A stretch of 64,000 nt of DNA, from NCBI GenBank assembly GCA_964415295.1, contig CAYPYN010000002.1, forward strand, positions 24,485 through 88,484, in the 5' to 3' direction. Source of the DNA: an uncultured Bacteroidota bacterium. Lineage in GTDB: Bacteria > CLD3 > SB21. The position numbers were made by a program, and so were the translations under genes. Under the pieces are notes generated by a model. It searched no databases. It worked only from the letters and a program-made list of their open reading frames with translations, and was not told where the DNA came from. Positions 15,766-64,000 of this stretch are shown in pieces (the first letter of the stretch is position 1; each line of letters opens with the position of its first letter).

Positions 15766-16152
15766 TTATTCGACTAAAGCAATGCAGTCGATCTCAACCA
15801 GGACATCTTTGGGGAGACGGGCGACTTCTACCGTAGAACGGGCCGGTGCACTTTCCGAGAGGAATTCCGCATACACTTCATTCATGGCCGTAAAGTCGCC
15901 GATATTCTTCAGGTAAACCGTCGTCTTAATGACATTTCTTAGACTCGTACCGCCGGCCTGTAAAATGGCCTGCATATTCTGTAAAACCAAGCGTGTCTGT
16001 CCTTTGATATCCAATGGCGCGATCTGATTTGTATTCGGATCGATGGCGATCTGACCGGAAGTAAATATCATTTTTCCGGAAGCCACGATACCTTGATTGT
16101 ACGGCCCAATAGGAGCGGGCGCCTTCTCCGTTTTAACAATTTGTCTGATCAT
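15766..16152 (-). CDS. ridA: RidA/YjgF family reactive-intermediate deaminase
   Basis: 128-aa product with YjgF/RidA pattern (APAPIGPYNQG..., ...ARSTVEVARLP). Confidence 0.75.
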   Translation of the reverse strand: MIRQIVKTEKAPAPIGPYNQGIVASGKMIFTSGQIAIDPNTNQIAPLDIKGQTRLVLQNMQAILQAGGTSLRNVIKTTVYLKNIGDFTAMNEVYAEFLSESAPARSTVEVARLPKDVLVEIDCIALVE

Positions 16153-16244
16153 GACAAGACCTTCTCCTGAAATGAATTGTAATGGCTTTAACCTCTGTCA
16201 CTATCTATTGTCACCTGTCACAAACGATCACAGATAAGTAGATT

Positions 16245-16454
16245 CTACTTAATATCCTTGAAATTTGCGTCCTGAACATCTTCACTCTTGTAAGAAGCAT
16301 TCCTTACTTCCTTGGACGGATCGGGGCTTTGTCCTGACCTTCCGCCCGTTTGCCGGTAACGGTTAGCCTCGGTCAGGTGAGAAATATAGCGAATCGCCTT
16401 CCACACGGCAAAAAATAAGATACCCAAAAGCACAAAACGGATAATAGAAAACAT
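16245..16454 (-). CDS. Hypothetical small membrane protein
   Basis: 69-aa ORF with one hydrophobic helix (IIRFVLLGILFFAVW) and a charged tail; no recognised family. Confidence 0.3.
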   Translation of the reverse strand: MFSIIRFVLLGILFFAVWKAIRYISHLTEANRYRQTGGRSGQSPDPSKEVRNASYKSEDVQDANFKDIK

Positions 16455-16499
16455 TCAACAACCTTTCTTGATTCATGCCAAATTAATTACTGCTTTGTA

Positions 16500-17510: not shown

Positions 17511-17570
17511 AGCGCTTACTCAATCTAAAATACACTATTGGTGTCAGCTGTTTAACTTATTGATTAATAT

Positions 17571-17618
17571 ACAAAAAAATAAGAGCATTTAGCAATATGG
17601 AAATCGCTAAATGCTCTT
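17571..17618 (-). terminator. Intergenic terminator between rplT and pheS
   Basis: On the minus strand, 13-bp stem AAGAGCATTTAGC / GCTAAATGCTCTT with 12-nt loop followed by ATTTTTTTGTAT. Confidence 0.7.
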
Positions 17619-17645
17619 CAAAACAGGCATTTTCGGCGGCTTGGC

Positions 17646-17996
17646 TTACGCCTGCTTGGCCGTTTCGATCAGTTTGTTAAATGCCGCGGCATCGTTCATC
17701 GCAATATCCGCGAGAACTTTTCGATTGATGTCGATGTTATGTTTTTTCAGCGAGCTGATGAACTTAGAATAGCTCATTCCGTGGGCGCGGACGGCGGCGT
17801 TGATACGCACGATCCAGAGAGAGCGAAAGTTACGTTTCTTCAGTTTGCGGTCGCGTGTCGCATAGGTCATACCCTTCTCGACGGTCTCGATCGCCGTGCG
17901 CAGCACATTTTTGCGGTTTCCCCAGTTACCCTTCGCCTGATTGAATATCTTCTTGCGGCGGGCCTTGGATGCCGGGTTATTGGTTGAACGTGGCAT
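17646..17996 (-). CDS. rplT: 50S ribosomal protein L20
   Basis: 116-aa basic protein with the L20 N-terminal pattern (MPRSTNNPASKARRKKIF...). Confidence 0.9.
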   Translation of the reverse strand: MPRSTNNPASKARRKKIFNQAKGNWGNRKNVLRTAIETVEKGMTYATRDRKLKKRNFRSLWIVRINAAVRAHGMSYSKFISSLKKHNIDINRKVLADIAMNDAAAFNKLIETAKQA

Positions 17997-22898: not shown

Positions 22899-24548
22899 AT
22901 GAGCAAAGCCGGTAAACAAATTCTATTCAAAAAGCATCCTCACTCGGCCATTCTCGAACGCTTGAGCCGCATCGACATTCTTCGGGCACTCCCGGCGGAA
23001 GAGATGCTCACGCTCGTACCGCATGTGGAACAAATCCAATTCCCCGCCGGACAAGTGCTAATGCGGCAAGGCGATACAGGCGATGCTGTTTATTTTATTG
23101 AAAACGGTTTGGCTCGGGTCAACCGCAGCGAAGCGCCCGATTTCTGGCATGTCGGCGCCGGAAGTGTGGTCGGTGAAATCGCCTTGCTCACCGGAGACAA
23201 GCGGACAGCGACCGTCACGGCCGAAACGGATATGGTTGTCTGGAAGGTTGCAAAAGAGGCTTTTGATACGGTCGTAGCGCAGTCGGCTCAATTGAAAATG
23301 GCGCTGGAAGAACTCATGGTTCACCGACTCAAAGGCATTGCGGTTACTTTGCCAAAAAAAAAGGTCTGGCTATCCACAGCCATGCGCGCACTGGAAGCGC
23401 AATACCGCGGTATTACGGCTTGGCAGGGATTCATGGCTGTCGGTATAATCATGTGGTTCGCCGTCGCGGTCAATAAATTCGTGACCCTGGTCGATATAAG
23501 TCAATCCGAAATAGGTTATGCGACGTACCAGTTGATCGCCGGGATGCTGATCCTCCAGGGTTCCTGCGAAGGATTTATCATCGGCGTTGAAAGGATCGGC
23601 GCCCGATACAGATGGGACGGTTTCATTTCAGGAACTGTCGGTTCGATACTTAGTACGCTTCCGGAATTCGTCGTCATTGCCTTTCTTGTCATGGTCGATC
23701 CGATGGCAGCCTACGTTACGGCCATCGTGACCATCTTCAATAATTCACTCGCCTACTCGATCTATTCATTTTTCCTTCCAAAAGATAAGGAAGGCTGTTA
23801 TACGATGCCCCGCTCCATGACCCGGGCGGGCGGTGAGATCCTGATCGCCGGAAGCGCGATCACGCTGATCATCGGATTGGTCATGATGGTCATGCGCGTG
23901 GAATCGACCAGGACCCGGTTCGAGGGATTCGATCTTATTTTGATCGGCGTCATTCTGATGATCATTTACGGATACTATACGCTGATGCTGGTCCGCTATT
24001 ACGGCGAAGGCAAGGACGACGCGGAATCGGTTCCTCCGGACCCGGAAAACCTGGGACATGACACGAGCTGGAAAGGCATCGGGATCATGTTCACGCTTGG
24101 CATCGTCGGCGCGTATTGCGGCGGCGAGAGTATCGGCGGTTTCGCGGAAACAGCTCTCAACGGCCTCGGTCTGCCGACCATTCCCACGGCGGCTATGCTG
24201 GCCTTTTTTGCGGGTATCAGCGAATACATCATCGTTTATAAATCGCACAAACGCGGAGAGCTTGGAATAGCGCTCAGCAATGTTTTCGGAGGATTGACCC
24301 AGGTCATGTTCCTCTTACTCCCTTTTGCTATGATTGTGATCGGCCTGGCCGGTTTGATCACCGGCGATACGACGTATTCCGTTCCGATCAATATTTCAAC
24401 TTGTCTTCTGATGTTGCTGCTCTTTCCGCTGTTTCACACGCTGCACCAATATCTGGAACAGGAAAAATCGGTGAATAATCTCGACGCCGCGGCCATGACG
24501 GGAATTTATGTTCTGTTGCTTTATTTTCTGTTTACTTACACCCAGTAA
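22899..24548 (+). CDS. Cyclic-nucleotide-binding domain fused to CaCA-like (Na+/Ca2+ exchanger-type) membrane transporter
   Basis: N-terminal cNMP-binding domain with phosphate-binding cassette (GEIALLTGDKRTATVTA); about 10 TM segments with CaCA alpha-repeat-like motifs (GSILSTLPEF; GISEY...GIALSNVFGG). Confidence 0.55.
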   Translation: MSKAGKQILFKKHPHSAILERLSRIDILRALPAEEMLTLVPHVEQIQFPAGQVLMRQGDTGDAVYFIENGLARVNRSEAPDFWHVGAGSVVGEIALLTGDKRTATVTAETDMVVWKVAKEAFDTVVAQSAQLKMALEELMVHRLKGIAVTLPKKKVWLSTAMRALEAQYRGITAWQGFMAVGIIMWFAVAVNKFVTLVDISQSEIGYATYQLIAGMLILQGSCEGFIIGVERIGARYRWDGFISGTVGSILSTLPEFVVIAFLVMVDPMAAYVTAIVTIFNNSLAYSIYSFFLPKDKEGCYTMPRSMTRAGGEILIAGSAITLIIGLVMMVMRVESTRTRFEGFDLILIGVILMIIYGYYTLMLVRYYGEGKDDAESVPPDPENLGHDTSWKGIGIMFTLGIVGAYCGGESIGGFAETALNGLGLPTIPTAAMLAFFAGISEYIIVYKSHKRGELGIALSNVFGGLTQVMFLLLPFAMIVIGLAGLITGDTTYSVPINISTCLLMLLLFPLFHTLHQYLEQEKSVNNLDAAAMTGIYVLLLYFLFTYTQ

Positions 24549-40225: not shown

Positions 40226-40545
40226 GGGAATGGGTCTGAACGATGGAAGACTATGTTCATTTATCGTTTTGTGTCAATTGGTACTGATTGCGGTTAGTCC
40301 AATAGATCATAACCATGATTCCCGGAAACAAAAGAACCAGCTATGAATACTGAAAATGTAGTTATCCGATTACGATTAGTCAACTCTAATCCATATTTGC
40401 ATTTTGTGAATTCTTTCACTATATTTTATACACTCATTCACACCACCGTTTCTTAATTCAGAGACGCTCTCTGAAACACGGCATGATCTCCTCAGTTCAA
40501 AAAATACTCCCCCCATTACCACCTCACCTGCAGAAAGGAAGGACT

Positions 40546-42318
40546 ATGAAAAGACTATCGTTTCTCCTGCTGCTGATCGCCTGTTTTACCTTTGTTACCG
40601 CAGACACCTACGGACAGCTGGACCTGGGCAAAGGCAAAGACCTGATCAAGAAAAAAGACAAAAAGAAGGATGAGAAGAAAACCGAGAACAAAGAAACAAA
40701 GAAGACGGATGAAAGCTCCGCTCAAAAAGCCGAATCCGTAAACGCCAAATCCGGCGATACCGGATCCAACGACTGCGAAAAACTTTACAAGACCCTTGAG
40801 AATAATATCGATGCCATAGAAAAGGCCTATGAAAAAAAGAAGGACTATTCAAACTACTTCAATCAGGCGCAGGCCAACTTCGAGGAACTGGAGAAAAAAT
40901 GCCCAAAAACCGATGTCAGCGTTCTCGAACTGAGATTCCGTGCCGTTATGGGTAAAATCGATGAGGCCGAACAACCTGTCGTCGTAAACAAAGATGCGAT
41001 GTGGAAGGAACACGAGACCTTCATGCAGAAATTCCGGGAGGATGCGTACGCTTTGTACAACTCGAGCGTTAATCCCGATTACGCCGTTTCCAACGCCGAC
41101 GGATTCTACAAACAGGCTGTGGCCCTGAACTACGATACGCGCAAAGTACTCGCCGATTCGATCGTCTATAAAGTTTGGAAACCTAATGAACTGGAGCGCG
41201 GAACCATATGGAACAATTACGTCTGGGTTGCTAAGAATTTCTGGGAATTGTACAACGAAAAAGTGGACAAGGAAATAGAGCCTTTTATTAACGAATGTCT
41301 GCGTAATGCCCTGAATAGCAAAAATTCCGGGACCGATATTGCGGCGGGAAAGAATTGGGCGTACAGCGCCTCCATGATGGTCAAAGCCATGTATGCGATC
41401 AATCCCGAATCGCAGACGGCGGGCCGATACAAGAAGGATGCGGACAATCTCTATGCCGAATTGCGGGGCCGCATCGGCGCAAAATATTTTACCAGTAAAC
41501 TGCACGAAGAGAATGCCATGAAAGTGGTCTTTTCCAAAAAACCGATCACAATAAAAGCCGAGGATCCTGCAAGTTTTACCAATACTTTCAATGCAGGCGA
41601 TCCGATCTACGCCATGGGTTATTTTGAGACGGACCTGGCCACGTCATGTTCCAACCGTATGACCTACTGGCTCAACGTGTTCGTAGACATTCCGGCTTAT
41701 TATACAGGCACGGCCGATTTTTACGCTTCCTATCCGGTCACCGCGGTCAACGGAAAACAATCGTATGTCTTTGCGGAGATCGTGACGCCTATTGAAGCCA
41801 ATCATCAGCCGGAGTGTCTGGATCTCATGAAGGGATTCAAGAACCTCAAACCCGGAAAACATGTGATCCAGATCGATATCACGAACTACAGCGGCAACCC
41901 GATGGCCACGGGCAAATTCACGCTGGACTGCGCGTTCGACGGCATGGCAAAACTGGACGCCATGATCAAGCCGTATGAAGAAAAATTAATAGAATCGGTA
42001 CGTATGCCGAAAGCAGCAATCAGCAATCCCGCGCTGGAACAGAATATGAAGAATGTACTGAAGGAGATCTATCCCGACGAGACAGCCTTGCGCGTAGTGA
42101 TCACCGACAAGGACTGGACGTATGAGCGTAATGCGATAACAGGCATCATCGAATTCCGCTATATCGGAACGACCGTAGCGATCAAGAGAGCCAACGGCGA
42201 GTGCCTACTGTACGATATTTCCTTCAAGCAGGATTACAACGGGGCGACCTACGGCGATCTCTGGAAATACGGCGTTGGAGGTAATCAGCCGATCAAGTGT
42301 GAGAATGTAATGAAATGA
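40546..42318 (+). CDS. Hypothetical secreted protein with Lys-rich low-complexity region
   Basis: ATG at 40546 preceded by AAAGGAAGG; signal peptide MKRLSFLLLLIACFTFVTA; Lys-rich stretch (KKKDKKKDEKKTENKETKK); about 590 aa without recognised motifs. Confidence 0.5.
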   Translation: MKRLSFLLLLIACFTFVTADTYGQLDLGKGKDLIKKKDKKKDEKKTENKETKKTDESSAQKAESVNAKSGDTGSNDCEKLYKTLENNIDAIEKAYEKKKDYSNYFNQAQANFEELEKKCPKTDVSVLELRFRAVMGKIDEAEQPVVVNKDAMWKEHETFMQKFREDAYALYNSSVNPDYAVSNADGFYKQAVALNYDTRKVLADSIVYKVWKPNELERGTIWNNYVWVAKNFWELYNEKVDKEIEPFINECLRNALNSKNSGTDIAAGKNWAYSASMMVKAMYAINPESQTAGRYKKDADNLYAELRGRIGAKYFTSKLHEENAMKVVFSKKPITIKAEDPASFTNTFNAGDPIYAMGYFETDLATSCSNRMTYWLNVFVDIPAYYTGTADFYASYPVTAVNGKQSYVFAEIVTPIEANHQPECLDLMKGFKNLKPGKHVIQIDITNYSGNPMATGKFTLDCAFDGMAKLDAMIKPYEEKLIESVRMPKAAISNPALEQNMKNVLKEIYPDETALRVVITDKDWTYERNAITGIIEFRYIGTTVAIKRANGECLLYDISFKQDYNGATYGDLWKYGVGGNQPIKCENVMK

Positions 42319-43199: not shown

Positions 43200-43949
43200 C
43201 TAAAATGTATAGGATACCCCAACGGCCACGTAATGGAATAAGGAAAAAGTATATACTTCATCATTATCCGCGCCTCCTTCCAGTATACGATACCCGGCTT
43301 TGATCCCAAGCCGATCGGACAAGTCATAGGATGCAGCGCATAGCACATCTATGGCTCTTCCCTGCGGAGCCGCGAGCGCATCGCCTTCCAAGAGAAAACC
43401 AAGCTTTTCGTGTGAACGCCAGAATAATCTGAAATTGATGATCGGTACAAAACCAACATTGGATTTCTCACCGAAAACTCCCTGAGACGAAAGCGCAATT
43501 CTCGCATCTCTGATCTTTGCCGTAAATCCTAACCCGCATTCGAGGCCGGGATTCCGCACAAAATCGTAACGGTACGTTAACCTGTATGAATTGAATTTGT
43601 AGGAACCTCTCAGATCGCTATTTGCGAGAAATGTCTTTCCGGCAAATTCAACATCTTGGTCAATTCGCCCTTTGGATTTCACGGTCAATGGGGCGAGTAA
43701 TAAAGACAGAGTATGGGCCGAACCAAAAGTGTAATTGAGTTTCATCCTATAGAAAATACCGGAACTCGGCTTCAGATCATCTTTCAAGGAAATAAGAGTA
43801 CCCCCGTCACCCGGTATGCGTATATCATTGTAACCGGTGCTGACAAGGCCTGTTTCAATATCCATACTTGCCTGGGCATGCAATGGCGGCGTCAGACAAC
43901 CGCTTAGCCATACCATCACTACTGCAGCCAGTAAAATTCTTATTTTCAT
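43200..43949 (-). CDS. Hypothetical outer-membrane beta-barrel protein
   Basis: Signal peptide; alternating beta pattern; C-terminal ...VAVGVSYTF ending in Phe. Confidence 0.4.
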   Translation of the reverse strand: MKIRILLAAVVMVWLSGCLTPPLHAQASMDIETGLVSTGYNDIRIPGDGGTLISLKDDLKPSSGIFYRMKLNYTFGSAHTLSLLLAPLTVKSKGRIDQDVEFAGKTFLANSDLRGSYKFNSYRLTYRYDFVRNPGLECGLGFTAKIRDARIALSSQGVFGEKSNVGFVPIINFRLFWRSHEKLGFLLEGDALAAPQGRAIDVLCAASYDLSDRLGIKAGYRILEGGADNDEVYTFSLFHYVAVGVSYTF

Positions 43950-52258: not shown

Positions 52259-53266
52259 CTACGCCCATTTTCCGAACCGTAGAAATTTGAAACCATCCGT
52301 ATGTTCATTCAATATTCTCTTCTTCTCATCATCCGAAACAAAGAATAATCCCGTTGCCAACGCATCGGTATCGCGGCAATTGTCGCCGATCACCGTTACG
52401 CTGGCAAATCCGGTGCGCTTTGGCATAGCCAGTTTCGGATTGATCAGATGGTGATACACATGACCTTCGGAAATGAAATACTGTTCATACGATCCCGAGG
52501 TAGCCACAGCCTGATCCTTCAGAGAAATCACTTCAATGATCTCCGAAGGGTTCTCCGGATCCTTTACTCCGACGCGCCAGGCTTTATCTTCGGAATTACC
52601 GCCAAGCGTTGCAATGTCGCCGCCAAGCCTTACCAGAGCCTGATCAATGCCTTCCTTCGCCAATACGGCTTTGGCGCGTTCCGATCCGTAACCTTTTCCA
52701 ATACCGCCAAGATCGATCTTAACGTCGGGCGTCAGCAGGCGAACCGTTGCGTGCGAGCCGTTTCTCGTCAGAAGGATCTTTTCCGAGAATTTAAGGTCGG
52801 CGAAACGAACCCATTGTTTTTCCGGCGGCGGTTCCGTCCGGTGCTTTATATCCCAGATGGAAGTGACTTTGCCCAAACCCGGTTCAAAGAATCCTTTCGT
52901 AGCATGCGACCAATGCAAAGCGCGTTCGATCAGGTCGGCCGTTTCATTGGAGATCCTGACATCCTGCGTATATCCCAGAAGATTGATCTGTCCTATTTCG
53001 CTGTTGTCCGAGAAATAGGTCAGCAATCGTTCCACACGGTTCAATTCCTCGTACGCGCTTTCGATGGCGCGAAACGCGAGACGTTCGTCGTCATGGACGA
53101 CCTGGATCTCGCCGATCGTTCCCATGAGCGGGCGCGTCATGCTGTACACGCGCCGGTTCCTGAATAGCACGGGACCAAGCCCTGCTCCCGCGATCAGGAA
53201 CAACGAACCTGCACCGATCTTTAAGAATTTTCTCCGGTCTATACCGGTCTTTGGGTTCTTCTCCAT
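52259..53266 (-). CDS. apbE: FAD:protein FMN transferase (ApbE family), Tat-signal
   Basis: Twin-arginine signal (DRRKFLKIGAG); ApbE-type motifs (GGIGKGY...); last gene of the Rnf cluster. Confidence 0.75.
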   Translation of the reverse strand: MEKNPKTGIDRRKFLKIGAGSLFLIAGAGLGPVLFRNRRVYSMTRPLMGTIGEIQVVHDDERLAFRAIESAYEELNRVERLLTYFSDNSEIGQINLLGYTQDVRISNETADLIERALHWSHATKGFFEPGLGKVTSIWDIKHRTEPPPEKQWVRFADLKFSEKILLTRNGSHATVRLLTPDVKIDLGGIGKGYGSERAKAVLAKEGIDQALVRLGGDIATLGGNSEDKAWRVGVKDPENPSEIIEVISLKDQAVATSGSYEQYFISEGHVYHHLINPKLAMPKRTGFASVTVIGDNCRDTDALATGLFFVSDDEKKRILNEHTDGFKFLRFGKWA

Positions 53267-53269
53267 ATG

Positions 53270-53455
53270 TTACCTTTCGCAAACTTTTTCGTCGTTGCAT
53301 CCATCGCATCGCCGTGCATGATCGGAACACGAAGAAGGAAGGTGTTCGAAATGATTCTTCGTTCGCATCTTACGGGCCAGGAACTGCACACCAAGCCAGC
53401 CCGTAGTCAGACAGGTTGCCGCTGTGATTCCGATGATGTATTGAGTAATTTCCAT
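53270..53455 (-). CDS. Small membrane protein with 4-Cys tail, NqrM/DUF539-like
   Basis: 61 aa: one TM helix (IIGITAATCLTTGWLGVQFL) then C-x6-C-x2-C-x5-C (CSDHARRCDGCNDEKVC); sits between rnfA and apbE. Confidence 0.4.
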   Translation of the reverse strand: MEITQYIIGITAATCLTTGWLGVQFLARKMRTKNHFEHLPSSCSDHARRCDGCNDEKVCER

Positions 53456-53463: not shown

Positions 53464-54042
53464 TTAGTTTGAGCTGAATAAGCCGGCGAATCCCATGAAC
53501 GCCATGGAAAGCAATCCGGCGATGATAAGGCTCAGCGCCGTTCCTTGAATCAACTTGGGCACATCCATTACTTTCGTTTCTTCCCTAATGCCGGCCATCA
53601 GTACCAGCGCCAGCGTCATACCTCCTCCGCCTCCGATGGAATAGATCAGTCCCTGCACTAACCCGTATTCCTTCGTTGTCTGGAAAAGCGCCAGCGCCAG
53701 GATCGCGCAGTTGGTCGTGATCAGGGGAAGATAAATTCCAAGCGCCTTAAAAAGTTCCGGACTGAGTTTCTTTATGACCATTTCAACGAACTGCACCGTG
53801 CTGGCGATCACCACGATATAACTGATCAAACCCAGGTACGGGGCGAACGGCAGGATGTACGTATTCAACGCCCACGTGCACAGCGATGTAATGACCATAA
53901 CGAAGATATTGGCCAAACCCATGCGGAAAGCCGTCTGAACCCGGTCGGATACACCCAGGAACGGACAGATGCCGAGGAACGACGACAGCGTGAAGTTATT
54001 GATCACGAGCGCTGAAACGAATATCCAAAGCAGATCACCCAT
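53464..54042 (-). CDS. rnfA: Rnf electron-transport complex subunit A
   Basis: RnfA/NqrE pattern (LVINNFTLSSFLGICPFLGVS..., ...LPLITTNCAILA). Confidence 0.85.
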   Translation of the reverse strand: MGDLLWIFVSALVINNFTLSSFLGICPFLGVSDRVQTAFRMGLANIFVMVITSLCTWALNTYILPFAPYLGLISYIVVIASTVQFVEMVIKKLSPELFKALGIYLPLITTNCAILALALFQTTKEYGLVQGLIYSIGGGGGMTLALVLMAGIREETKVMDVPKLIQGTALSLIIAGLLSMAFMGFAGLFSSN

Positions 54043-54049: not shown

Positions 54050-54697
54050 CTATGCTTTCTCCGCCAGTTTCATTTTCGCGCGTTCCGCCTGTTTACTCTT
54101 ATACCAGTTCACGAACAGCATCATAAAACCTAATAATAAAAATCCGCCCGGAGGCAGGATCATGATGACCCAAGGTTCGAAATGCGGACCGAAAAGGGAA
54201 ATACCAAACAGTGATCCGTTACCCAGAATTTCCCTGATTCCGCCCAGAGCCAACAACGCCAGAATGAACCCTACTCCCATTCCGAGCGCGTCCAATACAG
54301 AGAGCCACGCCGTATTCTTGTACGAAAAGGCTTCCTGTCTGCCCAGAATGATACAATTCACAACGATCAACGCGATAAATGCGCCGAGTTCTTTATGGAT
54401 CTTCGGAAATGCAGCCTGCAGTGAAAAATCAACGGCCGTCACAAAGGTTGCAATAATAACGACGAATGTCGTGATGCGGACCTGCTTGGGGATCCAGTTC
54501 CTCAAAACGGACACAAGCCAGCAGGATGCCACGAGAACAATCGTGGTCGCCAGTCCCATGGCTAAACCGTTGACCGCGGTATTGGTCACGGCCAGCGTGG
54601 GACACATGCCCAGTACGCTGACAAAGGTCGGGTTCTCTTTCCAGAGTCCTTTGATGAATTCCTGATATGCGCGTCCGTGTTCTTCCATCGAACTCAT
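54050..54697 (-). CDS. rnfE: Rnf electron-transport complex subunit E
   Basis: RnfE/NqrD pattern (VLGMCPTLAVTNTAVNGL, ...IALIVVNCIILGR); start overlaps the rnfG stop. Confidence 0.85.
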   Translation of the reverse strand: MSSMEEHGRAYQEFIKGLWKENPTFVSVLGMCPTLAVTNTAVNGLAMGLATTIVLVASCWLVSVLRNWIPKQVRITTFVVIIATFVTAVDFSLQAAFPKIHKELGAFIALIVVNCIILGRQEAFSYKNTAWLSVLDALGMGVGFILALLALGGIREILGNGSLFGISLFGPHFEPWVIMILPPGGFLLLGFMMLFVNWYKSKQAERAKMKLAEKA

Positions 54698-55380
54698 GGT
54701 TTTGTTCCGTAGGTTAATTGATTCTTCTGCACGTAGGCATCAATCGCCGTTCGCCATGTATCCAATGACTTCTGCATCGCACGCACGATCGCCTTGGACG
54801 AGATAGTGGCACCGGTGATCGTCTCTACCTGATTGGGCTGGGTTTTCTTGCCAGTTTTCACGGGTTCGATCTTGGGATCAACGGCCAGCGCGGTGAAATT
54901 GGATACAAAATGTTTATCCTTGTAGATCTTATCCCCTAAACCGGGTGTTTCCTTGCTGTCGAGTACTTCATAACCGATCACCATTTTTCCGACACCGTCA
55001 AAACCGTAGAGAATCCTAAGCATGTCGGCAAATCCCGGTTCGTTGCCGGGGATCGCAAAACCGATCACGGCGCCTTTTTCGTTGTACCCCAGAAAAATGC
55101 GAGGAACGGAACGATCGGACTGATTGACCTGCCTGACAAGCTGCCCGTTCTCGAGTATCATGGCCTCAAACTTGTTGCAACCCGGCAATACGCGGTATAC
55201 CGCTTCCTGCAAAGCTTCCTCTTTATTACGTTCAATGATGGGCAGCGTGAATACGTACGCACAAACCAGAACCAATCCTGAAAAGAATCCGGCTACCGCC
55301 AGCGTCGCGATCATCTGAAAGGAACTGGTTTCCTTCGTGGATAAGACAGGTATCTCTGTATGTATCTTCTGTTCTTCCAT
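54694..55380 (-). CDS. rnfG: Rnf electron-transport complex subunit G (FMN-binding)
   Basis: ATG at 55380 overlapping the rnfD stop by 1 nt; N-terminal TM helix; FMN-binding-domain motif (ITGATISSKAIV). The ORF-track 5' extension to 55536 overlaps rnfD. Confidence 0.75.
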   Translation of the reverse strand: MEEQKIHTEIPVLSTKETSSFQMIATLAVAGFFSGLVLVCAYVFTLPIIERNKEEALQEAVYRVLPGCNKFEAMILENGQLVRQVNQSDRSVPRIFLGYNEKGAVIGFAIPGNEPGFADMLRILYGFDGVGKMVIGYEVLDSKETPGLGDKIYKDKHFVSNFTALAVDPKIEPVKTGKKTQPNQVETITGATISSKAIVRAMQKSLDTWRTAIDAYVQKNQLTYGTKP

Positions 55381-56381
55381 TATTTCGTTCCGTAAACCCG
55401 GTATGGCGTAACCCTGTTGATCAGCGGCGTTACGGCATTCATCAGCAATATGGCATACATCACGCCTTCCGGCAATCCTCCGAAGATGCGGATCAGCACG
55501 ACCAGGAATCCTATACCCGCGCCGAATATCCAGCACCCTTTGATCGTAAAGGGCGAAGTCACCGGATCGGTTGCCATGAACACAGCACCCAACAAAAGTC
55601 CGCCGGAGAATATCATGTGCATCGGCGACGGGTAGATCGCGGGATTGACCAGATGCAGGATGCCCGATAGTAGTGCGGTTGCGGTCAAGATGGAAACCGG
55701 TATGTGCCAGTTGAATATCTTTCTCATAGCCAGATAAATGCCGACAAGGATGATGATCAGTCCGGAAGTTTCGCCGAGTGAACCGGCGGTATTCCCGATC
55801 ATCAGATTAAATAGGTCCGTAGCTTCGTGCTGGAATTTCATCGCTGAAAGCGGCGTGGCTCCCGTGAGGGCGTCCACTTTTTCTCCCTGGAAAAATGGAA
55901 TGGCCAGATTAGCACCGCGCGCCGATAAAAATTGACCGTCCGGAGCCGACCACGTGGTAATGGCTGTGGGAAAAGCCGCTTGCAGAAAGGCCCGGCCGAT
56001 CAGCGCCGGATTGAAAATGTTCTGTCCCAATCCGCCCCAGATCACTTTGCCCAGAACAACGGCGGCAATGCCTCCCAAGAACGCCATCCAGAGCGGAAAT
56101 CCCGGCGGCAGGGTCAGCGCGAATAAAAGCCCCGTGATCAAGGCGCTTCCGTCTTTCAGCGATTTGTAACGCGGTTTATCATTTGAGAAGAACCATTCTG
56201 TCGCAAAGCAGGACGCTACGCCGGTTGCGCACAGCAGGAAAGTGCTCAATCCGAAAAAATAATAAGCTGCGCCGATAACCGGGATGAGGGCGAAAACAAC
56301 CTGGTACATGATCCAAGGCGTGCTCACCTCATCATGCAGAAATGGAGACGTTGAAAGATTCAATTTAGACCGGTCTTCCAT
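55380..56381 (-). CDS. rnfD: Rnf electron-transport complex subunit D
   Basis: ATG at 56381 overlapping the rnfC stop by 1 nt; polytopic membrane protein with RnfD/NqrB pattern (...GATPLSAMKF..., FMATDPVTSP). Confidence 0.85.
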   Translation of the reverse strand: MEDRSKLNLSTSPFLHDEVSTPWIMYQVVFALIPVIGAAYYFFGLSTFLLCATGVASCFATEWFFSNDKPRYKSLKDGSALITGLLFALTLPPGFPLWMAFLGGIAAVVLGKVIWGGLGQNIFNPALIGRAFLQAAFPTAITTWSAPDGQFLSARGANLAIPFFQGEKVDALTGATPLSAMKFQHEATDLFNLMIGNTAGSLGETSGLIIILVGIYLAMRKIFNWHIPVSILTATALLSGILHLVNPAIYPSPMHMIFSGGLLLGAVFMATDPVTSPFTIKGCWIFGAGIGFLVVLIRIFGGLPEGVMYAILLMNAVTPLINRVTPYRVYGTK

Positions 56382-57724
56382 CAGTTCTTTGCCCTTCGTT
56401 CCCGAATAATACTTTTTGCCACGCGAAAACTCTGCACTAACGGAATGCCCGACGGGCAGACGAACGAGCATGACGCGCATTCAAAACAATCCATGATATG
56501 CAGCGGTTCCATATCCTCGTACAATCCTTTTCTCGCCAGAAGTCCCATTACGGAAGGATTGAGATACATCGGACAGACTTCCACGCAGCGCGCACAGCGG
56601 ATGCATTTGTATTCCGTCATATCCTGAACTTCATTATCCGTCAACACCAGAACGCCGGAAATACCTTTGGTCACCGGCACGTCGAGCGACTTCTGGGCAA
56701 TGCCCATCATCGGCCCGCCGAGCAGGATGCGAACGGCTTTGCTGGTCACTCCGCCGCAATAGTCGATCAGATGTTTGATAGGTGTTCCTACGGGAACCAT
56801 CAGATTCGCCGGACGCCGAATGGCCGTTCCCGTCACCGTCACCACGCGTTCGATCAGAGGAACCGACTGCGTGAAATACTGGGCCAGCGCCACCAGAGTT
56901 CCGACGTTGGAAACCAGCGTCTCAATATCAATAGGCAGTTTACCGGATGGAACTTCTTTGTCGAGCACCGCTTTGATCAGCATTTTTTCCGCACCTTGCG
57001 GGTATTTGACTTTCAGACCGATGACTTCATAGGTCACGTTCTGCTTTTTAACTTCTTCTTTCAGAACACGGATCGCATCGGGCTTATTATTCTCAATGCC
57101 TATATAAACTTTTTCCGCCGGTATGAAATGGCGCATGATCGTCAGGCCTTCGACCAGCTCTTTCGCAAATTCGACCATGATGCGGTGGTCGGCGGTCAGG
57201 AAAGGTTCGCATTCGCATCCGTTGGCGATGATGTAATTGCAGCGCTTGCCTTCGGGAATGGAGAATTTCACATGCGCCGGAAAACCCGCGCCGCCGAGGC
57301 CCACGAGTCCGGCCTGCTGAACGCCGTCTACAAATTCCTTGAACGAAAGATCCTGCCACGGACGCGGCTTCGGCATATCCACGGTCTGCGCAGAAAAAGG
57401 ATCGGCCTTGATCTTGATCGCCTGAACAAGCAATCCGTTGGGATGTTCACCGAGCTCGATCGCCGTAATCGTTCCGGTGACGGGAGCGTGCTGCGCCACA
57501 GACACAAAAGAAGCCGGTTTGGCGATCATCTGTCCGCGTTTCACGTGCTGGCCTTTTTGTACGATCGGGATCGAAGGCGCACCGGCGTGCTGGGAAAGCG
57601 GAACCACATACTCATCCACAAAGGGCATACGTTCCACGGCCAAAGTGCCGGTGAATTCTTTATACTCTTCCGGATGAACCCCGTGGTGAAAGGTCAAACG
57701 TTCTGTTGAATGATTATCTGTCAT
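56381..57724 (-). CDS. rnfC: Rnf electron-transport complex subunit C
   Basis: RnfC pattern with NADH-binding region (GLVGLGGAGFPAHVK) and two 4Fe-4S motifs (CIRCARCVEVCP, CFECASCSFVCP). Confidence 0.85.
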   Translation of the reverse strand: MTDNHSTERLTFHHGVHPEEYKEFTGTLAVERMPFVDEYVVPLSQHAGAPSIPIVQKGQHVKRGQMIAKPASFVSVAQHAPVTGTITAIELGEHPNGLLVQAIKIKADPFSAQTVDMPKPRPWQDLSFKEFVDGVQQAGLVGLGGAGFPAHVKFSIPEGKRCNYIIANGCECEPFLTADHRIMVEFAKELVEGLTIMRHFIPAEKVYIGIENNKPDAIRVLKEEVKKQNVTYEVIGLKVKYPQGAEKMLIKAVLDKEVPSGKLPIDIETLVSNVGTLVALAQYFTQSVPLIERVVTVTGTAIRRPANLMVPVGTPIKHLIDYCGGVTSKAVRILLGGPMMGIAQKSLDVPVTKGISGVLVLTDNEVQDMTEYKCIRCARCVEVCPMYLNPSVMGLLARKGLYEDMEPLHIMDCFECASCSFVCPSGIPLVQSFRVAKSIIRERRAKN

Positions 57725-57727
57725 AGT

Positions 57728-60700
57728 TCAATTCTTGTGACCGTAACCCGACAGTTCCATCAATTTATCCCGCAGTTTCGCTTTGACGGATTCCATCTGT
57801 GCGTTTTCCTGCGACCGAAGCTTTTCCTCGTATTCCGCCTTGATTTGTTCCAAAGCCGTATTCTGCTTGGCTGTCCATTCTTCGTCCAGGCGTTCTTTCA
57901 GTTTCTGCGGATACGGCGTGAGCATACCGGCGATCTCGCGGAGCGTTCTCCACGATAGATGCGCCGCTTCGGCGGCCCGCATGATTTCAGACGGAACTTC
58001 ATACTTCATTGTCCGATCCTGTTCCCCGATCCTGAGAACGCAGCACCGCTTGCCCGGACGATCATTTTCAGCAAGTGACAGATACTCGTTCATCGCCATG
58101 CCGTTTCTGTCATCGTCCGGTAATGCAGCGAAGGCATCACGGTATTCTTTCTGTTCGAACGCCCAATCGGCGAAGGTAACTATGTAATTACCGCCTGAAT
58201 AACTGACCGGCTTCGAAAAATCATCATACGATTCCGGGTTCGCGCCAAGATCCATGGACTCGGAATACAGCGGTTTCTTGTCGCTTGGTATAAAACGCAG
58301 CGCCGGGAAGGCTCGCGAACGAAGCGCCAATTGAAACATGGATGGATAATGCATGGCGATATCCGCCGGAGCATCCGGAGTCAGAACCCTGAAGAGCCCG
58401 GGATCGGCATGACGCAGGCCTTCGGTCAGCCCTTTGAAAAGATGTGCCGGATCGGCCAGCGAGGCCTGAAGGAAATAACATTTCTTAAGCGACAATATCG
58501 ATGTAGTAAGAGCCATTTGCTCTTGCCGGCTTTGGGCAGAACTCTTCACCGGATCGAACACAAATATTTTGACAGGCAGTTCCGAAGTCAGAAGTTCGAT
58601 CACCGATGGCACGTTCATTCCGGAGATCATAGCGGGATCGACAAAAAGCAGAACCGGAGGCACCATAGACTTTTCGGCCTCATTCAGATCGCTCCACGCA
58701 AGGCGCGCGATCTTAGCGTCATGCACATGCGGTTGATACTGATTTTGCGACTCGAGTTCCGCGCGGCGCAGTAATTTGATATTGTCCAACATTTGCCGCA
58801 CGTGACCTCTTACCAGGCCCAATATGAACGGCGCCGACGAAGGATCGTCCATTACGATGGCCGGTGAGGTGAATACGTTGAACGGCACCGATTTAGCCCA
58901 GTTCAATCCGTCGGAGCTGGACAGAACCGCGCCGAAACGGGATCGGCCTGTTCCTGCCGGACCTTTGGAGAGAACGAATGACAACTGCTTCAGATCTTTG
59001 ATCAGTCCGGCTACCCGTTCCACCCAGGCCGTTTCGATCACGCCGAATCGCTGGGTCTCGCTCAGTTTAGCCATGACATTATCTACAGTGACCCGTGCGG
59101 TTTCACCGGACAAACTGTTCAAAAGATTCTCGACATTGGCGATCGGCAGTGCGTCCTTCAGTTTGTTCTGGATCTTGTCGGTCAGGTTCTGAATGTATTG
59201 ATCGATCTCTTTCAATCTCTGATTGATCTCCGACTGCCGCATCGATTCCGTCACCGACGCGATCACATGCATCATGATCTTCTGCGAAACGCCGTCCTTT
59301 GAAGCGATGCCGCCGGCCATGGACATATAATAATTACGGCTCAGCATGATCGCCGCGATCGGATCATACGTGTCATCTTTGATAAGGGTTTGTATGATAT
59401 CTCCGCCGGTATCGGGCAGTTGTTCCCACACGCGGAAAGCGGATCGATGTGTATGCGATCGTTCCGCGCTTTGCGGCACCATCTCCAACGCGCCATCCGT
59501 GCATACATTGACGCACATTCCGCAGCCGGTACAGGCCTGAGGGTTGATCACGGCAGAATAAAGCAGACCGCTGCCTTTCATCTGGGACTCCGTCCGAGTG
59601 AAGAATCGATCCGTGGCCGAAACCGGCAGTTCGCGGACAAAATTTTCAACGGTCTTGATCTCTCCGGTTAAAGCCGTCAGTTTTTCGCCTTCGATCTTCA
59701 TTTGTGCAGCTAATTTTTCTGAAGAAGCCTGAAGAACGTCGGTGATCGAATATAGGTCTTTCACACCGGAAATCGCTTGGTTGATCAGTTTCGACAAATT
59801 TTTGATAACGGGCGGCGTCAGTTGATTCATGACAGTTCCCGCCGCCTGGGCCTTTTCAACCGCCGTTTTGATCATCGCTTCCGCGGAGATCACGATCGCC
59901 GGCATGGCCGATTCCGGGCAATACACGGAGCATTGTCCGCATCCGGTACACTTTTCCGGTGAGATAACGGGAATGAAAGAACGCGCCGCTCCTGCATCGG
60001 CAAAATTAGCCGTCGCCGCCGGCATGACAGGCACTGCTTGCAAAGGATCGGCCACTAATTCGCCCGTCTTCCCCTGCTCATAAAATATCCCCGTACGGTC
60101 GTAGAACTGGGAAACCTTGGAGTACGGCGGCCCGTGATCCTCATAGCGGCGCAGGGTCAGCGGTAATTCTTTGACCGCGGCCTGTTTTACAGACAACGCC
60201 GCTGATTCCAGTTTTTTTATTTCGGTCAGGCCTTTGGTAAAATGGTCTTTATTGCTATCCGATAAAACGATCCCTAATTCGTTCGTTACGAATTTTTCAA
60301 AATTCGCGGCTTCGGATTCGGCAACGGTTTCATTGAAGAACGGCGCGGTCGGCGTTAGCATAACTCCCTGCAGCCATTCGGGATCTTCAACGGCACCTAC
60401 AACGTGTTTTAAGTGCAATTTAAGTTCAGATACTTTCGATCGAACGGAATCTTCCAGTTCAATGACCTCTCCTTCATGACCGGATACGATCAAAACCGTT
60501 GCGCCGTTTTTCAAGCGGCCAAGACTGCCGGGACGATTGATAGAGACGGCATCCGTAATAAGGCAATCGATATCGTTCTCTTTTTCCAGAGTATACGGCC
60601 ACGGTTCTCGGGTTAAACTTAACTGTTTATCACCGGCCTTGACACGGGCCTTCAACCTGAATGCCAGCCATTCCGCGGCAGACTCTACAGAATCCATACT

Positions 60701-62059
60701 CTGTGGATGAGAGAAACCAATGGAAAACGTTTTATCAGAGGAGATTTCCGACTTTTCGGCGGCTTTCAACATGCGGCTTTCGAGCGCCGGGAAATCGCGA
60801 TTCAGATTTTGCAACAATATCTGCTGTTTGGGATACGAGGATGATTGGCGGGTAAGTTGCGAGCCAATAAAGAACCGCCTCTTACCTCCTTCAGCCATGT
60901 TCTCAAAAACAGAGACAAGATCGACATAATTCAGTTCTCCGTAGCGTCCGGCATATAACGTCGGCCGCTCACGTTCGCTGAGAGAAGGAAGTTCAGGATA
61001 AACCAGTGTTTTCTTATTGGAGGAATTCTGAACAGCTTTGTCCAGTGCAGACAGAACGTCCGTATACAACACGCTTTCGTTTTCAGCGCTCAGACTTTCA
61101 AGTATGGTCACGGCCTTCTTGCCGCGAAGTCGTTCACAGATCTCAGATTCAGGAAATGGCTTTGAAACATTCACATTCAAACAGCCGGCTTTGATCTTTT
61201 TTGATCTCAAATGATCCACAACCGCTGCGGCTTTTTGAAACGCGCTTCCTTGAACGATCAATATGTATTCCGCATCATTCATCTTATGTGAAGTGACGCC
61301 TGAGTAGTTTCGGCCCGTCAGTTTGCCGAATTCCGTACAAGCCTGCATCAGAATCGAGGAAGCGGAATCCCCGATGTAGATATCGTGTGCTGCCTTCTCC
61401 AGGGTCATGGCGCCGGGGTCTTTTGAAACGCCATTGATCGTCGGATAATCAAAATGGAACCAATTCGGAATGCGGCGGCGTGTCTTTCCGAAGATCATTT
61501 TTTGCGCCGTATTCGGACATTCGACGAAATCGTCAGCATCGCCCAGAAATCCGATCAGGGTTTTCGGATCAGGTATATGGACGTTTTCGAAGACGGCATT
61601 ATCGTAAGCCACTACGACGGGTATCATCGCCTGTTCGGCTGTTTTATGTGCAATAATGGTAAGATCCACAGTTTCCTGAACGCAGGACGAACGAAGAAGA
61701 ATACAGCCGGTTCCGGCAATCGCCTTCAGAAGTTCGGGATCGGAAACATCCGCATGAATAACATAAGGCACATGACGGCGAACGGCTTCCATCAAAGATG
61801 TGAGTTCACGGCCGGTATTCTTCGAATCCATTTGGCCTGAAGCCCTTAAGCCGGACATGGCCAGCCCCATGGCAAACGATGCACCGGCGTTTTGCACGCT
61901 GCTTCCGATCAGCGGCCGCCCAAAGATATTTTGACGGCTTGATGATACCGGATCCGTAAGACTTTCACTAACAGCCGATTCGATGATCCGAATCGCTTGC
62001 GATCCATTGGCTGTTATGCTTTTGCCCACGACCAGATCGCTATTTCTTTCTAACCTCAT
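57728..62059 (-). CDS. Pyruvate:ferredoxin-oxidoreductase-like giant protein with degenerate TPP-binding region
   Basis: 1443 aa; N-terminal PFOR domain I/II-like segments (RQNIFGRPL, LRSSCVQETVDLTIIAH, KLTGRNYSGV, AGRYGEL); two ferredoxin motifs (CTGCGQCSVYCP, CTGCGMCVNVCT); C-terminal about 560 aa without the PFOR C-x2-C, GDG or NTGGQ motifs. ATG overlaps rnfB stop (ATGA); stop 3 nt before rnfC ATG. Confidence 0.6.
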   Translation of the reverse strand: MRLERNSDLVVGKSITANGSQAIRIIESAVSESLTDPVSSSRQNIFGRPLIGSSVQNAGASFAMGLAMSGLRASGQMDSKNTGRELTSLMEAVRRHVPYVIHADVSDPELLKAIAGTGCILLRSSCVQETVDLTIIAHKTAEQAMIPVVVAYDNAVFENVHIPDPKTLIGFLGDADDFVECPNTAQKMIFGKTRRRIPNWFHFDYPTINGVSKDPGAMTLEKAAHDIYIGDSASSILMQACTEFGKLTGRNYSGVTSHKMNDAEYILIVQGSAFQKAAAVVDHLRSKKIKAGCLNVNVSKPFPESEICERLRGKKAVTILESLSAENESVLYTDVLSALDKAVQNSSNKKTLVYPELPSLSERERPTLYAGRYGELNYVDLVSVFENMAEGGKRRFFIGSQLTRQSSSYPKQQILLQNLNRDFPALESRMLKAAEKSEISSDKTFSIGFSHPQSMDSVESAAEWLAFRLKARVKAGDKQLSLTREPWPYTLEKENDIDCLITDAVSINRPGSLGRLKNGATVLIVSGHEGEVIELEDSVRSKVSELKLHLKHVVGAVEDPEWLQGVMLTPTAPFFNETVAESEAANFEKFVTNELGIVLSDSNKDHFTKGLTEIKKLESAALSVKQAAVKELPLTLRRYEDHGPPYSKVSQFYDRTGIFYEQGKTGELVADPLQAVPVMPAATANFADAGAARSFIPVISPEKCTGCGQCSVYCPESAMPAIVISAEAMIKTAVEKAQAAGTVMNQLTPPVIKNLSKLINQAISGVKDLYSITDVLQASSEKLAAQMKIEGEKLTALTGEIKTVENFVRELPVSATDRFFTRTESQMKGSGLLYSAVINPQACTGCGMCVNVCTDGALEMVPQSAERSHTHRSAFRVWEQLPDTGGDIIQTLIKDDTYDPIAAIMLSRNYYMSMAGGIASKDGVSQKIMMHVIASVTESMRQSEINQRLKEIDQYIQNLTDKIQNKLKDALPIANVENLLNSLSGETARVTVDNVMAKLSETQRFGVIETAWVERVAGLIKDLKQLSFVLSKGPAGTGRSRFGAVLSSSDGLNWAKSVPFNVFTSPAIVMDDPSSAPFILGLVRGHVRQMLDNIKLLRRAELESQNQYQPHVHDAKIARLAWSDLNEAEKSMVPPVLLFVDPAMISGMNVPSVIELLTSELPVKIFVFDPVKSSAQSRQEQMALTTSILSLKKCYFLQASLADPAHLFKGLTEGLRHADPGLFRVLTPDAPADIAMHYPSMFQLALRSRAFPALRFIPSDKKPLYSESMDLGANPESYDDFSKPVSYSGGNYIVTFADWAFEQKEYRDAFAALPDDDRNGMAMNEYLSLAENDRPGKRCCVLRIGEQDRTMKYEVPSEIMRAAEAAHLSWRTLREIAGMLTPYPQKLKERLDEEWTAKQNTALEQIKAEYEEKLRSQENAQMESVKAKLRDKLMELSGYGHKN

Positions 62060-62971: not shown

Positions 62972-64000
62972 TTAGTTAAACGATGCCGCGCGTTTGATCA
63001 GATCATCCAGTCCCGCTTCTGATGAATTGAGCGGCATACCGGGATGAATACATTTGGCCGGACATTTTTCGGCGGCCTTGACCAACTGCGCATACGTACC
63101 GGCTTTGGCATCGGCTATGAATGCCTGCTTGGTCGAATTATATTTGAACATGTTCGGATTCACATTGATACACTCATTACAGCTCGTGCAGCGGAAAGAC
63201 TCCAGCCAAGGCTCGGAAGATACCACCGCTTCTTCCTGCGGTTCAGACTTCGGCGCCTCGGTCGTTGCTTCGGTCTTTTGCGTAACGGTTTCCTTCGCGA
63301 CAGCGGCCGCGGGTTTAGCGGAAGGCGTTACAGCCAGAGTATCCAGATCGAGCAGAATTCCCGAGAGCTTTTCCATGGCCTCGCGTGCGGTCGTCTTTCG
63401 GACTTCTTCCACATCCGCCGCATGTTTTTCCTCCAGAGCCTCTATTTCCTTCTTCTTTTCTTCCAGAAGATCCTGCGTGACCTTTTCAATCGCTTTTGCA
63501 ACATGATAACTGTTGATCCCTCCGAACTCCTGTATGAAATGCCAGAAATCCAGACGCTCCTGCGCCACGAGCGCCACGTAATGAGTGACCGCAACTTTGT
63601 GTAAGACGTTTTCCTTATCAACCATCCAAATAAATGGCACTTTGGCATACGCGTCGGTTGAAGGCATCTTCAGGTAATCGGCAAATAATACCAGGTCGTC
63701 CGACCAGAATTCAGAAGGAACCTCTTTAAGGTGTTCCACAAAATGCATGTCTTGTCCCGCAAAATCGGCAAAGCTAAACGGAATGGACCATGTATCTTTC
63801 TGACCTTCAGCCGATTCAATTTCAAATTCATACACCGGCCAATCCTGATCGGCCTGTGGATTCTTCTCAACATTAAAACGGCTTCCCCACTGCAAACCCT
63901 GCTTGTGATCGTAAGTGAATTCCGGGAACAACCGGCTTTCCAGCGCGGCTCCTGACCAAACGTAAGGAATGCTGTTTGAATTGTCCTTTGGCGACAGCAC
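62972..64000 (-). CDS. Hypothetical protein with C-terminal ferredoxin-like Cys motif (N-terminus beyond window)
   Basis: Frame open from the window end; C-terminus has CTSCNEC ... CPAKC (C-x2-C-x2-C ... C-P) single-cluster ferredoxin-like pattern; coiled-coil/acidic middle region; 37 bp upstream of rnfB on the same strand. Confidence 0.45.
   Translation of the reverse strand: MLSPKDNSNSIPYVWSGAALESRLFPEFTYDHKQGLQWGSRFNVEKNPQADQDWPVYEFEIESAEGQKDTWSIPFSFADFAGQDMHFVEHLKEVPSEFWSDDLVLFADYLKMPSTDAYAKVPFIWMVDKENVLHKVAVTHYVALVAQERLDFWHFIQEFGGINSYHVAKAIEKVTQDLLEEKKKEIEALEEKHAADVEEVRKTTAREAMEKLSGILLDLDTLAVTPSAKPAAAVAKETVTQKTEATTEAPKSEPQEEAVVSSEPWLESFRCTSCNECINVNPNMFKYNSTKQAFIADAKAGTYAQLVKAAEKCPAKCIHPGMPLNSSEAGLDDLIKRAASFN

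Follow-up and report, generated by a model that had tools for sequence, protein, structure and literature searches.

A PFOR-derived protein encoded between rnfB and rnfC

The stretch of DNA analyzed here (the window) comprises 64,000 nucleotides of contig CAYPYN010000002.1 from an uncultured Bacteroidota bacterium, and it carries an rnf operon in which a 1443-amino-acid open reading frame (ORF) is inserted between rnfB and rnfC. A previous inspection of the letters without database searches, which we refer to as the sequence-only reading, had proposed that the product of this ORF (hereafter the giant) is a catalytically dead yet retained paralog of pyruvate:ferredoxin oxidoreductase (PFOR). 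Our analysis bears this out: the giant is a pseudoenzyme, that is, a homologue of an enzyme family that has lost its catalytic residues and is under purifying selection. The ORF was recovered on the minus strand between neighbors typed by Pfam and NCBIfam; it begins with ATG, and the plus strand at the same coordinates consists of stop-ridden frames. The ATG overlaps the rnfB TGA as ATGA, and the TGA of the giant is followed by ACT and then the rnfC ATG, leaving a 3-nt gap, so that both of the junctions reported previously are seen in the sequence. Such overlapping or near-abutting codons suggest stoichiometric co-production of the giant with the two cytoplasmic Rnf subunits. The peptides that had been quoted for the giant (RQNIFGRPL, SSCVQETVDLTIIAH, KLTGRNY, AGRYGEL, FVDPAMISG and SVQNAG) are all present in the translation. 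A frameshift or fusion artefact was ruled out by full-length homologues of 27-78% identity in dozens of genomes, and the loss of ligands in the alignment described below likewise excluded an ordinary NifJ.

Catalytic ligands are lost while the ferredoxin cysteines and the fold are kept

We compared motifs in a MAFFT alignment of the giant with its relatives and three genuine PFORs. Pfam recognized a partial POR_N (aa 83-166), PFOR_II (263-342) and two Fer4 domains in the giant, with no match to PF01558 (domain III), PF02775 (TPP_enzyme_C) or PF10371, and the PFOR equivalog model TIGR02176 (NifJ) gave 120 bits, below the cut-off of 911 for catalytic PFOR. At the level of sequence, solved PFORs align to the giant only at aa 28-340 and at the ferredoxin motifs. 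The alignment agreed with the sequence-only reading that C-x2-C, GDG and NTGGQ are missing and that FVDPAMISG occupies the GDG segment, to which it aligns exactly. The columns from GDG to NTGGQ, which hold the diphosphate and Mg site for thiamine pyrophosphate (TPP), are filled by FVDPAMISG and VFDPVKSSAQSRQE in the giant, and all four cysteines of the proximal [4Fe-4S] cluster (the CxxC pair, the third in TGC and the fourth in PC) are absent. In domain I, both YPITPS and the segment with the substrate-binding Arg114 are deleted. An Asn had been placed at the position of the TPP-activating Glu; there is indeed no acidic residue in this column, but MAFFT leaves a gap there and the Asn is only adjacent.

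All eight cysteines of the two Cys4 sets of the catalytic PFOR ferredoxin domain are present in the giant. These had been described as two CxxCxxCxxxCP motifs about 115 residues apart rather than about 55, a description that holds for the two Cys4 sets but not for the details, since the second motif is CxxCxxCxxxC-T and the spacing from start to start is 139 residues (C704 to C843) compared with 57 in classical PFOR. These residues suggest that the giant keeps two ferredoxin-domain [4Fe-4S] sites in this lineage and no longer binds TPP, substrate or the proximal cluster.

The fold was modeled with AlphaFold2 (AF2) in two halves, the N half comprising aa 1-690 (predicted local distance difference test score, pLDDT, 88.4; predicted template modeling score, pTM, 0.88) and the other half having a pLDDT of 85.5. 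The best match of the N half was PFOR 6cin (Foldseek E 3e-34, TMq 0.69), and since this match spans about 740 columns, domain III is retained despite the silence of Pfam. Domains I-II-III-IV and V-VI of the modeled halves superpose on solved PFOR, in keeping with the ancestry that had been proposed. Helical inserts at aa 734-825 and 937-1039 distinguish the giant from classical PFOR. Its C-terminal 150 or so residues had been called coiled-coil-like; the AF2 model does contain a long single helix, although this is limited to the last ~55 residues (1383-1436).

All of the long forms of PFOR discussed below, whether dead or catalytically intact, have three features that classical PFOR does not: their ferredoxin motifs are separated by an insert of ~82 aa, their domain VI is enlarged, and they carry the C-terminal helix. 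With ~115-120 aa between its ferredoxin motifs, its enlarged domain VI, its C-terminal helix and its placement between rnfB and rnfC, the giant belongs to this unnamed, Rnf-embedded lineage. A further motif, GPxGxGRSR, at aa 1033-1041 (about nt 58937-58963, minus strand), closes the long-form-specific insert of domain VI; it is invariant in the dead clade, the intact long forms have a similar sequence (GPSGKGRA), and nothing in classical PFOR corresponds to it. The motif may serve for docking or as a ligand site.

The dead clade is widespread, monophyletic and under purifying selection

We searched for relatives of the C-terminal half with phmmer against 1.84 billion cluster representatives, scanned one genome per GTDB species, and annotated 89 loci. 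The phmmer search returned 535 proteins at E<=1e-30, and 140-142 of the 143 new top representatives of 50%-identity clusters have no GDG, NTGGQ or TGC and are thus dead forms. A word-indexed protein search, which included a profile, had given about 21 dead relatives and the idea of a rare family; this idea was overturned by the hundreds of relatives found in the exhaustive search and the genome scan. The latter gave 146 relatives, the best 80 of which were taken into the locus analysis. Classified by their motifs, the giants of the annotated loci comprise 47 dead and 41 intact forms. The order rnfB-giant-rnfC(DGEA) is present in nearly all of the 89 loci: rnfB adjoins the giant in 30/39 dead and 28/35 intact loci, and rnfC does so in 25/32 and 28/32, respectively. 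Conservation of the gene between rnfB and rnfC, which the sequence-only reading had named as a check, is therefore seen across many phyla. The hosts include Bacteroidota (Saprospiraceae, Cyclobacteriaceae, Cytophagales, Flavobacteriales and Lewinellaceae), SAR324, Thiomargarita, Beggiatoa, Thioploca, Woeseiaceae, Sedimenticola, Ca. Thiodiazotropha, Ectothiorhodospira, Sulfuritalea and other Rhodocyclales, Acidobacteriota, Planctomycetota, Hydrogenedentota and Calditrichota, among others.

In a neighbor-joining tree with classical PFOR as the outgroup, the dead forms were monophyletic and sister to the intact long-form PFORs, indicating a single catalytic death, at a time when the protein was already encoded within an rnf operon. 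The giant is thus descended from a long-form, single-chain PFOR that already lay between rnfB and rnfC. The ratio of nonsynonymous to synonymous substitution rates (dN/dS) between the giant and its two closest relatives (L090 and L091) was 0.13-0.14 overall and 0.10-0.21 in every region, with 0.10-0.12 in the dead TPP domain and 0.10-0.15 in the ferredoxin domain, values that are approximate because dS was about 1-1.5. Among sequences 27-76% identical, 15.7% of the columns of domain VI are at least 90% conserved, matching domains I and V. Domain III is the least constrained and is missing in roughly half of the dead clade, giving rise to length classes of ~1220-1300 and ~1400-1600 aa. All eight ferredoxin cysteines are kept in 41 of the 44 full-length dead giants in genome loci and in 123 of 142 cluster representatives, some of which are fragments. 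The dead clade is under purifying selection and is functional rather than decaying.

Several of the annotated loci depart from the usual arrangement. A contig from a Pseudomonadales metagenome-assembled genome (L025, JASMJM010000112.1) carries a complete dead-type module (both OFOR genes, the ~850-aa protein, RnfB, dead giant and RnfCDGEA; see the following section); directly after it come another rnfB and an intact long-form PFOR, and both systems thus lie side by side. In a Magnetococcales genome (L009 5442-13380, GCA_002753595.1), an intact long-form PFOR is found outside any rnf operon, beside a 958-aa NfnB/GltD-like protein with Fer4_20, Pyr_redox_2 and DHODB_Fe-S_bind domains, and this pair may be a soluble pyruvate:NAD(P)+ oxidoreductase. 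Two PF05635 (23S_rRNA_IVP four-helix-bundle) genes and one for a family-less 618-aa protein break up the rnf operon of L004, with insertions at 13717-14082, 15867-17723 and 20454-20810, that is, between the giant and rnfC, between rnfC and rnfD, and between rnfE and rnfA.

A second dead paralog and an intact OFOR lie upstream

Upstream of rnfB, the end of the window cuts a gene for a protein that is ~850 aa long in relatives; the 342-aa fragment in the window is 68% identical to the 850-aa protein of L001. The protein matches no Pfam or NCBIfam family except for a C-terminal Fer4_13. BLASTP nevertheless aligned it with the last 550 aa of an intact PFOR encoded in an rnf operon (P0022) at E 8e-72, and hhalign gave E 2.4e-68 across 675 columns that run from domain IV to the C-terminal helix, which it has in common with the giant and the intact long-form PFORs. 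It has no GDG, no NTGGQ and none of the domain-V cysteines. By its sequence, the ~850-aa protein is a second dead PFOR paralog, consisting of domains IV-VI and the C-terminal helix. All of the full-length copies (27/27) end in an Ala/Pro/Glu/Thr-rich linker of 40-50 aa followed by a CxxCxxC...CP single-cluster ferredoxin.

Among dead giants, 25/28 have this protein encoded upstream, compared with 0/31 of the intact giants, and genes for the alpha and beta subunits of a 2-oxoacid:ferredoxin oxidoreductase (OFOR) lie upstream of 23/26 dead and 4/21 intact giants. The well-covered dead loci have the order OFOR-alpha, OFOR-beta, ~850-aa paralog, RnfB, giant, RnfCDGEA, small Cys4 membrane protein and ApbE, which constitutes a conserved module. 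OFOR-alpha is a gamma-alpha fusion of ~630 aa and OFOR-beta has 317 aa; together they represent the two-subunit type without a ferredoxin domain. The beta subunit has GDG, CxxC and NxxYGxT in 32/33 copies, the alpha subunit has YPITP in 33/33, and TIGR03710 scores above its cut-off; judged by these motifs, the OFOR is catalytically intact. In three loci where an OFOR precedes an intact giant (L005, L008 and L042), this single-cluster ferredoxin domain is found at the C terminus of the giant itself, and a relative of ~333 aa takes the place of the ~850-aa protein. The E1 and E2 genes of 2-oxoglutarate dehydrogenase adjoin the OFOR in L004; this neighborhood and the conserved CBS proteins downstream of the module provide weak hints as to its substrate and regulation.

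Remaining genes of the window

The features of the locus are listed in Table 1. RnfB matches Acetobacterium woodii RnfB (9eri_B) at E 4e-59 and has one predicted membrane helix; none is predicted in the giant or the ~850-aa protein. An equivalent of the 61-aa ORF directly follows rnfA in about 35 related loci, in dead and intact systems alike, and may represent a seventh small Rnf subunit. The CBS pair directly after ApbE is also found in L001 (19589-20547) and L090 (11174-12133), and these proteins may be nucleotide-sensing regulators of the module.

Table 1. Features of the rnf locus in the window.
Feature	Position (nt)	Strand	Basis or remarks
C-terminal 342 aa of ~850-aa protein, cut by window end	62972..64000	minus	Dead PFOR paralog, linker, ferredoxin (about nt 63044-63193)
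RnfB, 292 aa	62056..62934	minus	Pfam/NCBIfam; long polyferredoxin type, N-terminal membrane helix
Giant pseudo-PFOR, 1443 aa	57728..62059	minus	ORF and translation, Pfam/NCBIfam, motif table, AF2 halves, fold matches, dN/dS
Giant, domains I-II, aa 1-400	60860..62059	minus	PYR-like domain; YPITPS, activating Glu and Arg114 segment lost
Giant, domain III-like region, aa 401-650	60110..60859	minus	Fold kept, Pfam-negative; least conserved; deleted in ~half of dead clade
Giant, ferredoxin domain V, aa 696-870	59450..59974	minus	Two Cys4 motifs split by ~82-aa helical insert
Giant, first Cys4 motif, C704/707/710/714	59918-59950	minus	
Giant, second Cys4 motif, C843/846/849/853	59501-59533	minus	
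Giant, dead TPP-binding (PP) domain VI, aa 871-1380	57920..59449	minus	VDP instead of GDG; NTGGQ and four cluster cysteines lost
Giant, C-terminal tail, aa 1381-1443	57731..57919	minus	One long amphipathic helix, aa 1383-1436
RnfC	56381..57724	minus	TIGR01945, 527 bits
RnfD	55380..56480	minus	Longest ORF; true start probably near 56381
RnfG (FMN_bind)	54694..55536	minus	Longest ORF
RnfE	54050..54697	minus	Pfam
RnfA	53464..54042	minus	Pfam
61-aa ORF, one membrane helix, C-terminal 4-Cys cluster	53270..53455	minus	No Pfam match
ApbE flavin transferase	52259..53266	minus	Pfam
Two CBS-pair proteins, 134 and 182 aa	51117..52075	minus	Pfam

Elsewhere in the window, a 549-aa protein (22899-24548, plus strand) has a cyclic-nucleotide-binding domain at its N terminus and also a Na/Ca-exchanger membrane domain, and three ORFs (9838-11970, minus, 710 aa; 40483-42318, plus, 611 aa; 43200-43949, minus, 249 aa) matched no Pfam family at E<=1e-5. 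The remainder consists of ordinary housekeeping genes. For the threonyl-tRNA synthetase (ThrRS) of the window, the nearest named matches are from "bacterium", Bacteroidota, KSB1 and Ignavibacteriaceae, with 62-84% identity, and the window is assigned to an uncultured lineage of the FCB group. A horizontal-transfer island was rejected, as the GC content of the window is uniform at 0.45-0.53.

A putative adaptor between a 2-oxoacid enzyme and Rnf

The usual picture of Rnf is that of a pump with six subunits and with free ferredoxin as its partner in electron exchange. The presence of the OFOR and of a second dead paralog upstream shifts the likely role of the giant from that of an extra Fe-S subunit to that of an adaptor for another enzyme. 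The explanation that we favor, with moderate confidence, is that the giant serves both as a pseudoenzyme scaffold and as an Fe-S relay, connecting RnfB to the OFOR and to the tethered ferredoxin. The giant and the ~850-aa paralog would then form a cytoplasmic platform on RnfB and RnfC that docks the catalytically intact, ferredoxin-domain-less OFOR and passes electrons between its single cluster and RnfB. The carriers would be the tethered, swinging ferredoxin and, where these are retained, the two clusters of the giant. Such an assembly would amount to a hard-wired, ion-coupled 2-oxoacid:NAD+ oxidoreductase that works without soluble ferredoxin or, in the reverse direction, to a 2-oxoacid synthase driven by NADH and the ion gradient and equally independent of the soluble carrier. 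In our ranking, the scaffold is the conserved core role, and the relay comes on top of it in most lineages, this one among them.

A number of points weigh against this explanation. The putative membership of the giant in the Rnf complex is read from gene order and codon coupling, and its putative association with the OFOR from gene order only; moreover, the window ends before the predicted OFOR genes, whose presence in this genome is deduced from relatives. The AF2 halves were modeled with neither cofactors nor partners present. Dead-clade patterns served as seeds for the GTDB survey, which retained the best 80 of 146 relatives, and its proportions are therefore biased. The dead giants of Thiomargarita, Parabeggiatoa and related bacteria (L013, L014, L017 and L024) have rnfB upstream, with no rnfC, OFOR or same-strand ~850-aa gene nearby, and the module thus appears to be scattered in the genomes of these large sulfur bacteria; in L024, an ~850-aa gene is found on the opposite strand. 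Finally, three Flavobacteriales-like giants of 1225-1229 aa (L003, L004 and L035) have lost both ferredoxin Cys motifs as well as domain III, leaving no predicted cofactor, while their operon position and partners are unchanged. An electron-relay role is consequently not universal, and because the gene is kept in place despite the loss of the cysteines, the conserved core role looks structural rather than one of electron transfer.

This same subclade argues for a pure scaffold, in which the giant would have no part in electron transfer and would only position the OFOR and the ferredoxin of the ~850-aa protein at RnfB, its Fe-S sites being structural leftovers. The invariance of the tethered ferredoxin in all 27 copies of the ~850-aa protein counts in favor of such a role, as does the disappearance of the proximal cluster, the one that would link the clusters of the giant to anything inside the protein. 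The retention of all eight cysteines in the great majority of dead giants, and the low dN/dS of the ferredoxin domain, speak for a use of these sites, and we consider a pure scaffold unlikely, though it deserves to be taken seriously. It is less probable still that the giant is co-transcribed with Rnf but not complexed with it, for instance as a soluble, free-standing "giant ferredoxin" or a regulator that shares the operon. Its want of a membrane helix would fit this, and so would intact long-form PFORs outside rnf operons, in Pelagicoccus (L006) and in the Magnetococcales locus described above; however, the strict rnfB-giant-rnfC order in Bacteroidota, SAR324, Gammaproteobacteria, Calditrichota and others, together with the coupled codons, is difficult to reconcile with free-standing proteins.

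We regard it as very improbable that the giant is still an enzyme that binds TPP or another cofactor in a non-canonical manner and retains 2-oxoacid chemistry: although the folds of the PP and PYR domains are retained and the dead domain is strongly conserved, down to the invariant GPxGxGRSR, the giant has lost YPITP, the Glu, the Arg114 segment, the four cysteines, GDG and NTGGQ together, half of its clade is missing domain III, and its TIGR02176 score is far below the cut-off. A decaying, pseudogene-like relic, to which the long branches of the dead clade and the poor conservation of the domain-III region might point, is effectively refuted by the selection and distribution data, namely uninterrupted ORFs of 1200-1600 aa in at least 140 clusters, dN/dS of about 0.1-0.2 and many invariant residues.

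Returning to the scaffold and relay, we tentatively extend it to a respiratory supercomplex, a possibility to which we give somewhat less credence than to the adaptor role itself. This would be a ferredoxin-free, ion-translocating 2-oxoacid:NAD+ oxidoreductase composed of OFOR alpha and beta, the two pseudoenzymes derived from PFOR, the tethered ferredoxin as a swinging carrier, and Rnf. Its evolutionary starting point would have been an active PFOR bound to Rnf, followed by subunit duplication, catalytic death and the recruitment of a different OFOR. Potentials are near -500 mV for the 2-oxoacid/acyl-CoA couples and -320 mV for NAD+/NADH, a span that is normally exploited by Rnf. If the proposal is true, marine Bacteroidota, SAR324 and sulfur-oxidising Gammaproteobacteria, among which the module is widespread, would possess a supercomplex that conserves the ~200 mV wasted by 2-oxoacid dehydrogenases or that drives reductive carboxylation from NADH.

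The data point to a large and phylogenetically broad class of rnf operons with a PFOR-type protein between rnfB and rnfC, and within it a derived class with a conserved pseudoenzyme, a second dead paralog with a tethered ferredoxin, and a separate, intact OFOR. If these proteins do assemble, a 2-oxoacid enzyme and an ion pump would be directly connected, and prokaryotes would furnish, in the giant, a clear example of a metabolic enzyme that took on a structural adaptor role following duplication. Their assembly would also explain how oxygen-tolerant OFORs could be used by largely aerobic or microaerobic bacteria without a soluble pool of low-potential ferredoxin. Cultured hosts of the intact form exist (Ectothiorhodospira and Sulfuritalea), making the idea directly testable.

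Comparison with known systems

The giant has the same domain order, fold and ferredoxin cysteines as the classical homodimeric PFORs (D. africanus 1B0P and M. thermoacetica 6CIN; NifJ, TIGR02176), but differs from these in having no ligands for TPP, Mg, substrate or the proximal cluster, in its helical inserts and C-terminal helix, and in its location inside an rnf operon. The intact long-form PFORs of ~1550-1700 aa, found for instance in Ca. Thiodiazotropha, Ectothiorhodospira and Sulfuritalea, form the sister clade, with the inserts, C-terminal helix and operon position of the giant; unlike the giant, they have kept every catalytic motif, and the upstream OFOR and ~850-aa protein are usually missing. 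They are annotated only as "2-oxoacid:acceptor oxidoreductase family protein".

Rnf complexes with additional components are known from Methanosarcina and Desulfovibrio, in which Rnf is associated with a cytochrome. According to a review (PMC12174285), Rnf1 of A. vinelandii has an additional cytoplasmic subunit. As with the giant, such accessory proteins are encoded within the rnf operon, but none of those described is known to be derived from PFOR. A 2014 paper on the Solemya velum symbiont (PMC4287430) notes in passing that PFOR genes lie between rnfB2 and rnfC2, and these probably correspond to the intact long form. A 2025 review of RNF and NQR mentions neither PFOR nor oxoglutarate, and papers on Riftia/Escarpia, Thiomargarita and Kentron mention Rnf near reductive tricarboxylic acid cycle genes but not the giant. 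The operon in the Ignavibacterium and Melioribacter rnf papers is a different one, rnfCDGEAB with two unrelated genes. As our searches for an Rnf-linked pseudoenzyme, an Rnf supercomplex and a Thiodiazotropha PFOR gave no match in the literature outside subscription, the dead-giant variant of Rnf is apparently undescribed, the single passing mention of PFOR between rnfB2 and rnfC2 being the nearest report.

The upstream OFOR is of the same type as the two-subunit enzymes of Sulfolobus (StOFOR, 5B46-5B48) and Magnetococcus (OGOR, 6N2N), with a gamma-alpha fusion, a beta subunit and a match to TIGR03710. Those enzymes use soluble ferredoxin, whereas here a dead PFOR paralog encoded in the same operon appears to carry the ferredoxin on a tether. 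Tethered or fused coupling of 2-oxoacid oxidation to NAD(P)+ without a free carrier is familiar from the swinging-arm carriers of 2-oxoacid dehydrogenases and from pyruvate:NADP+ oxidoreductase, the PFOR-reductase fusion of Euglena and Cryptosporidium. By analogy only, the module would have a ferredoxin with an Ala/Pro-rich linker as its carrier and a membrane ion pump as its acceptor.

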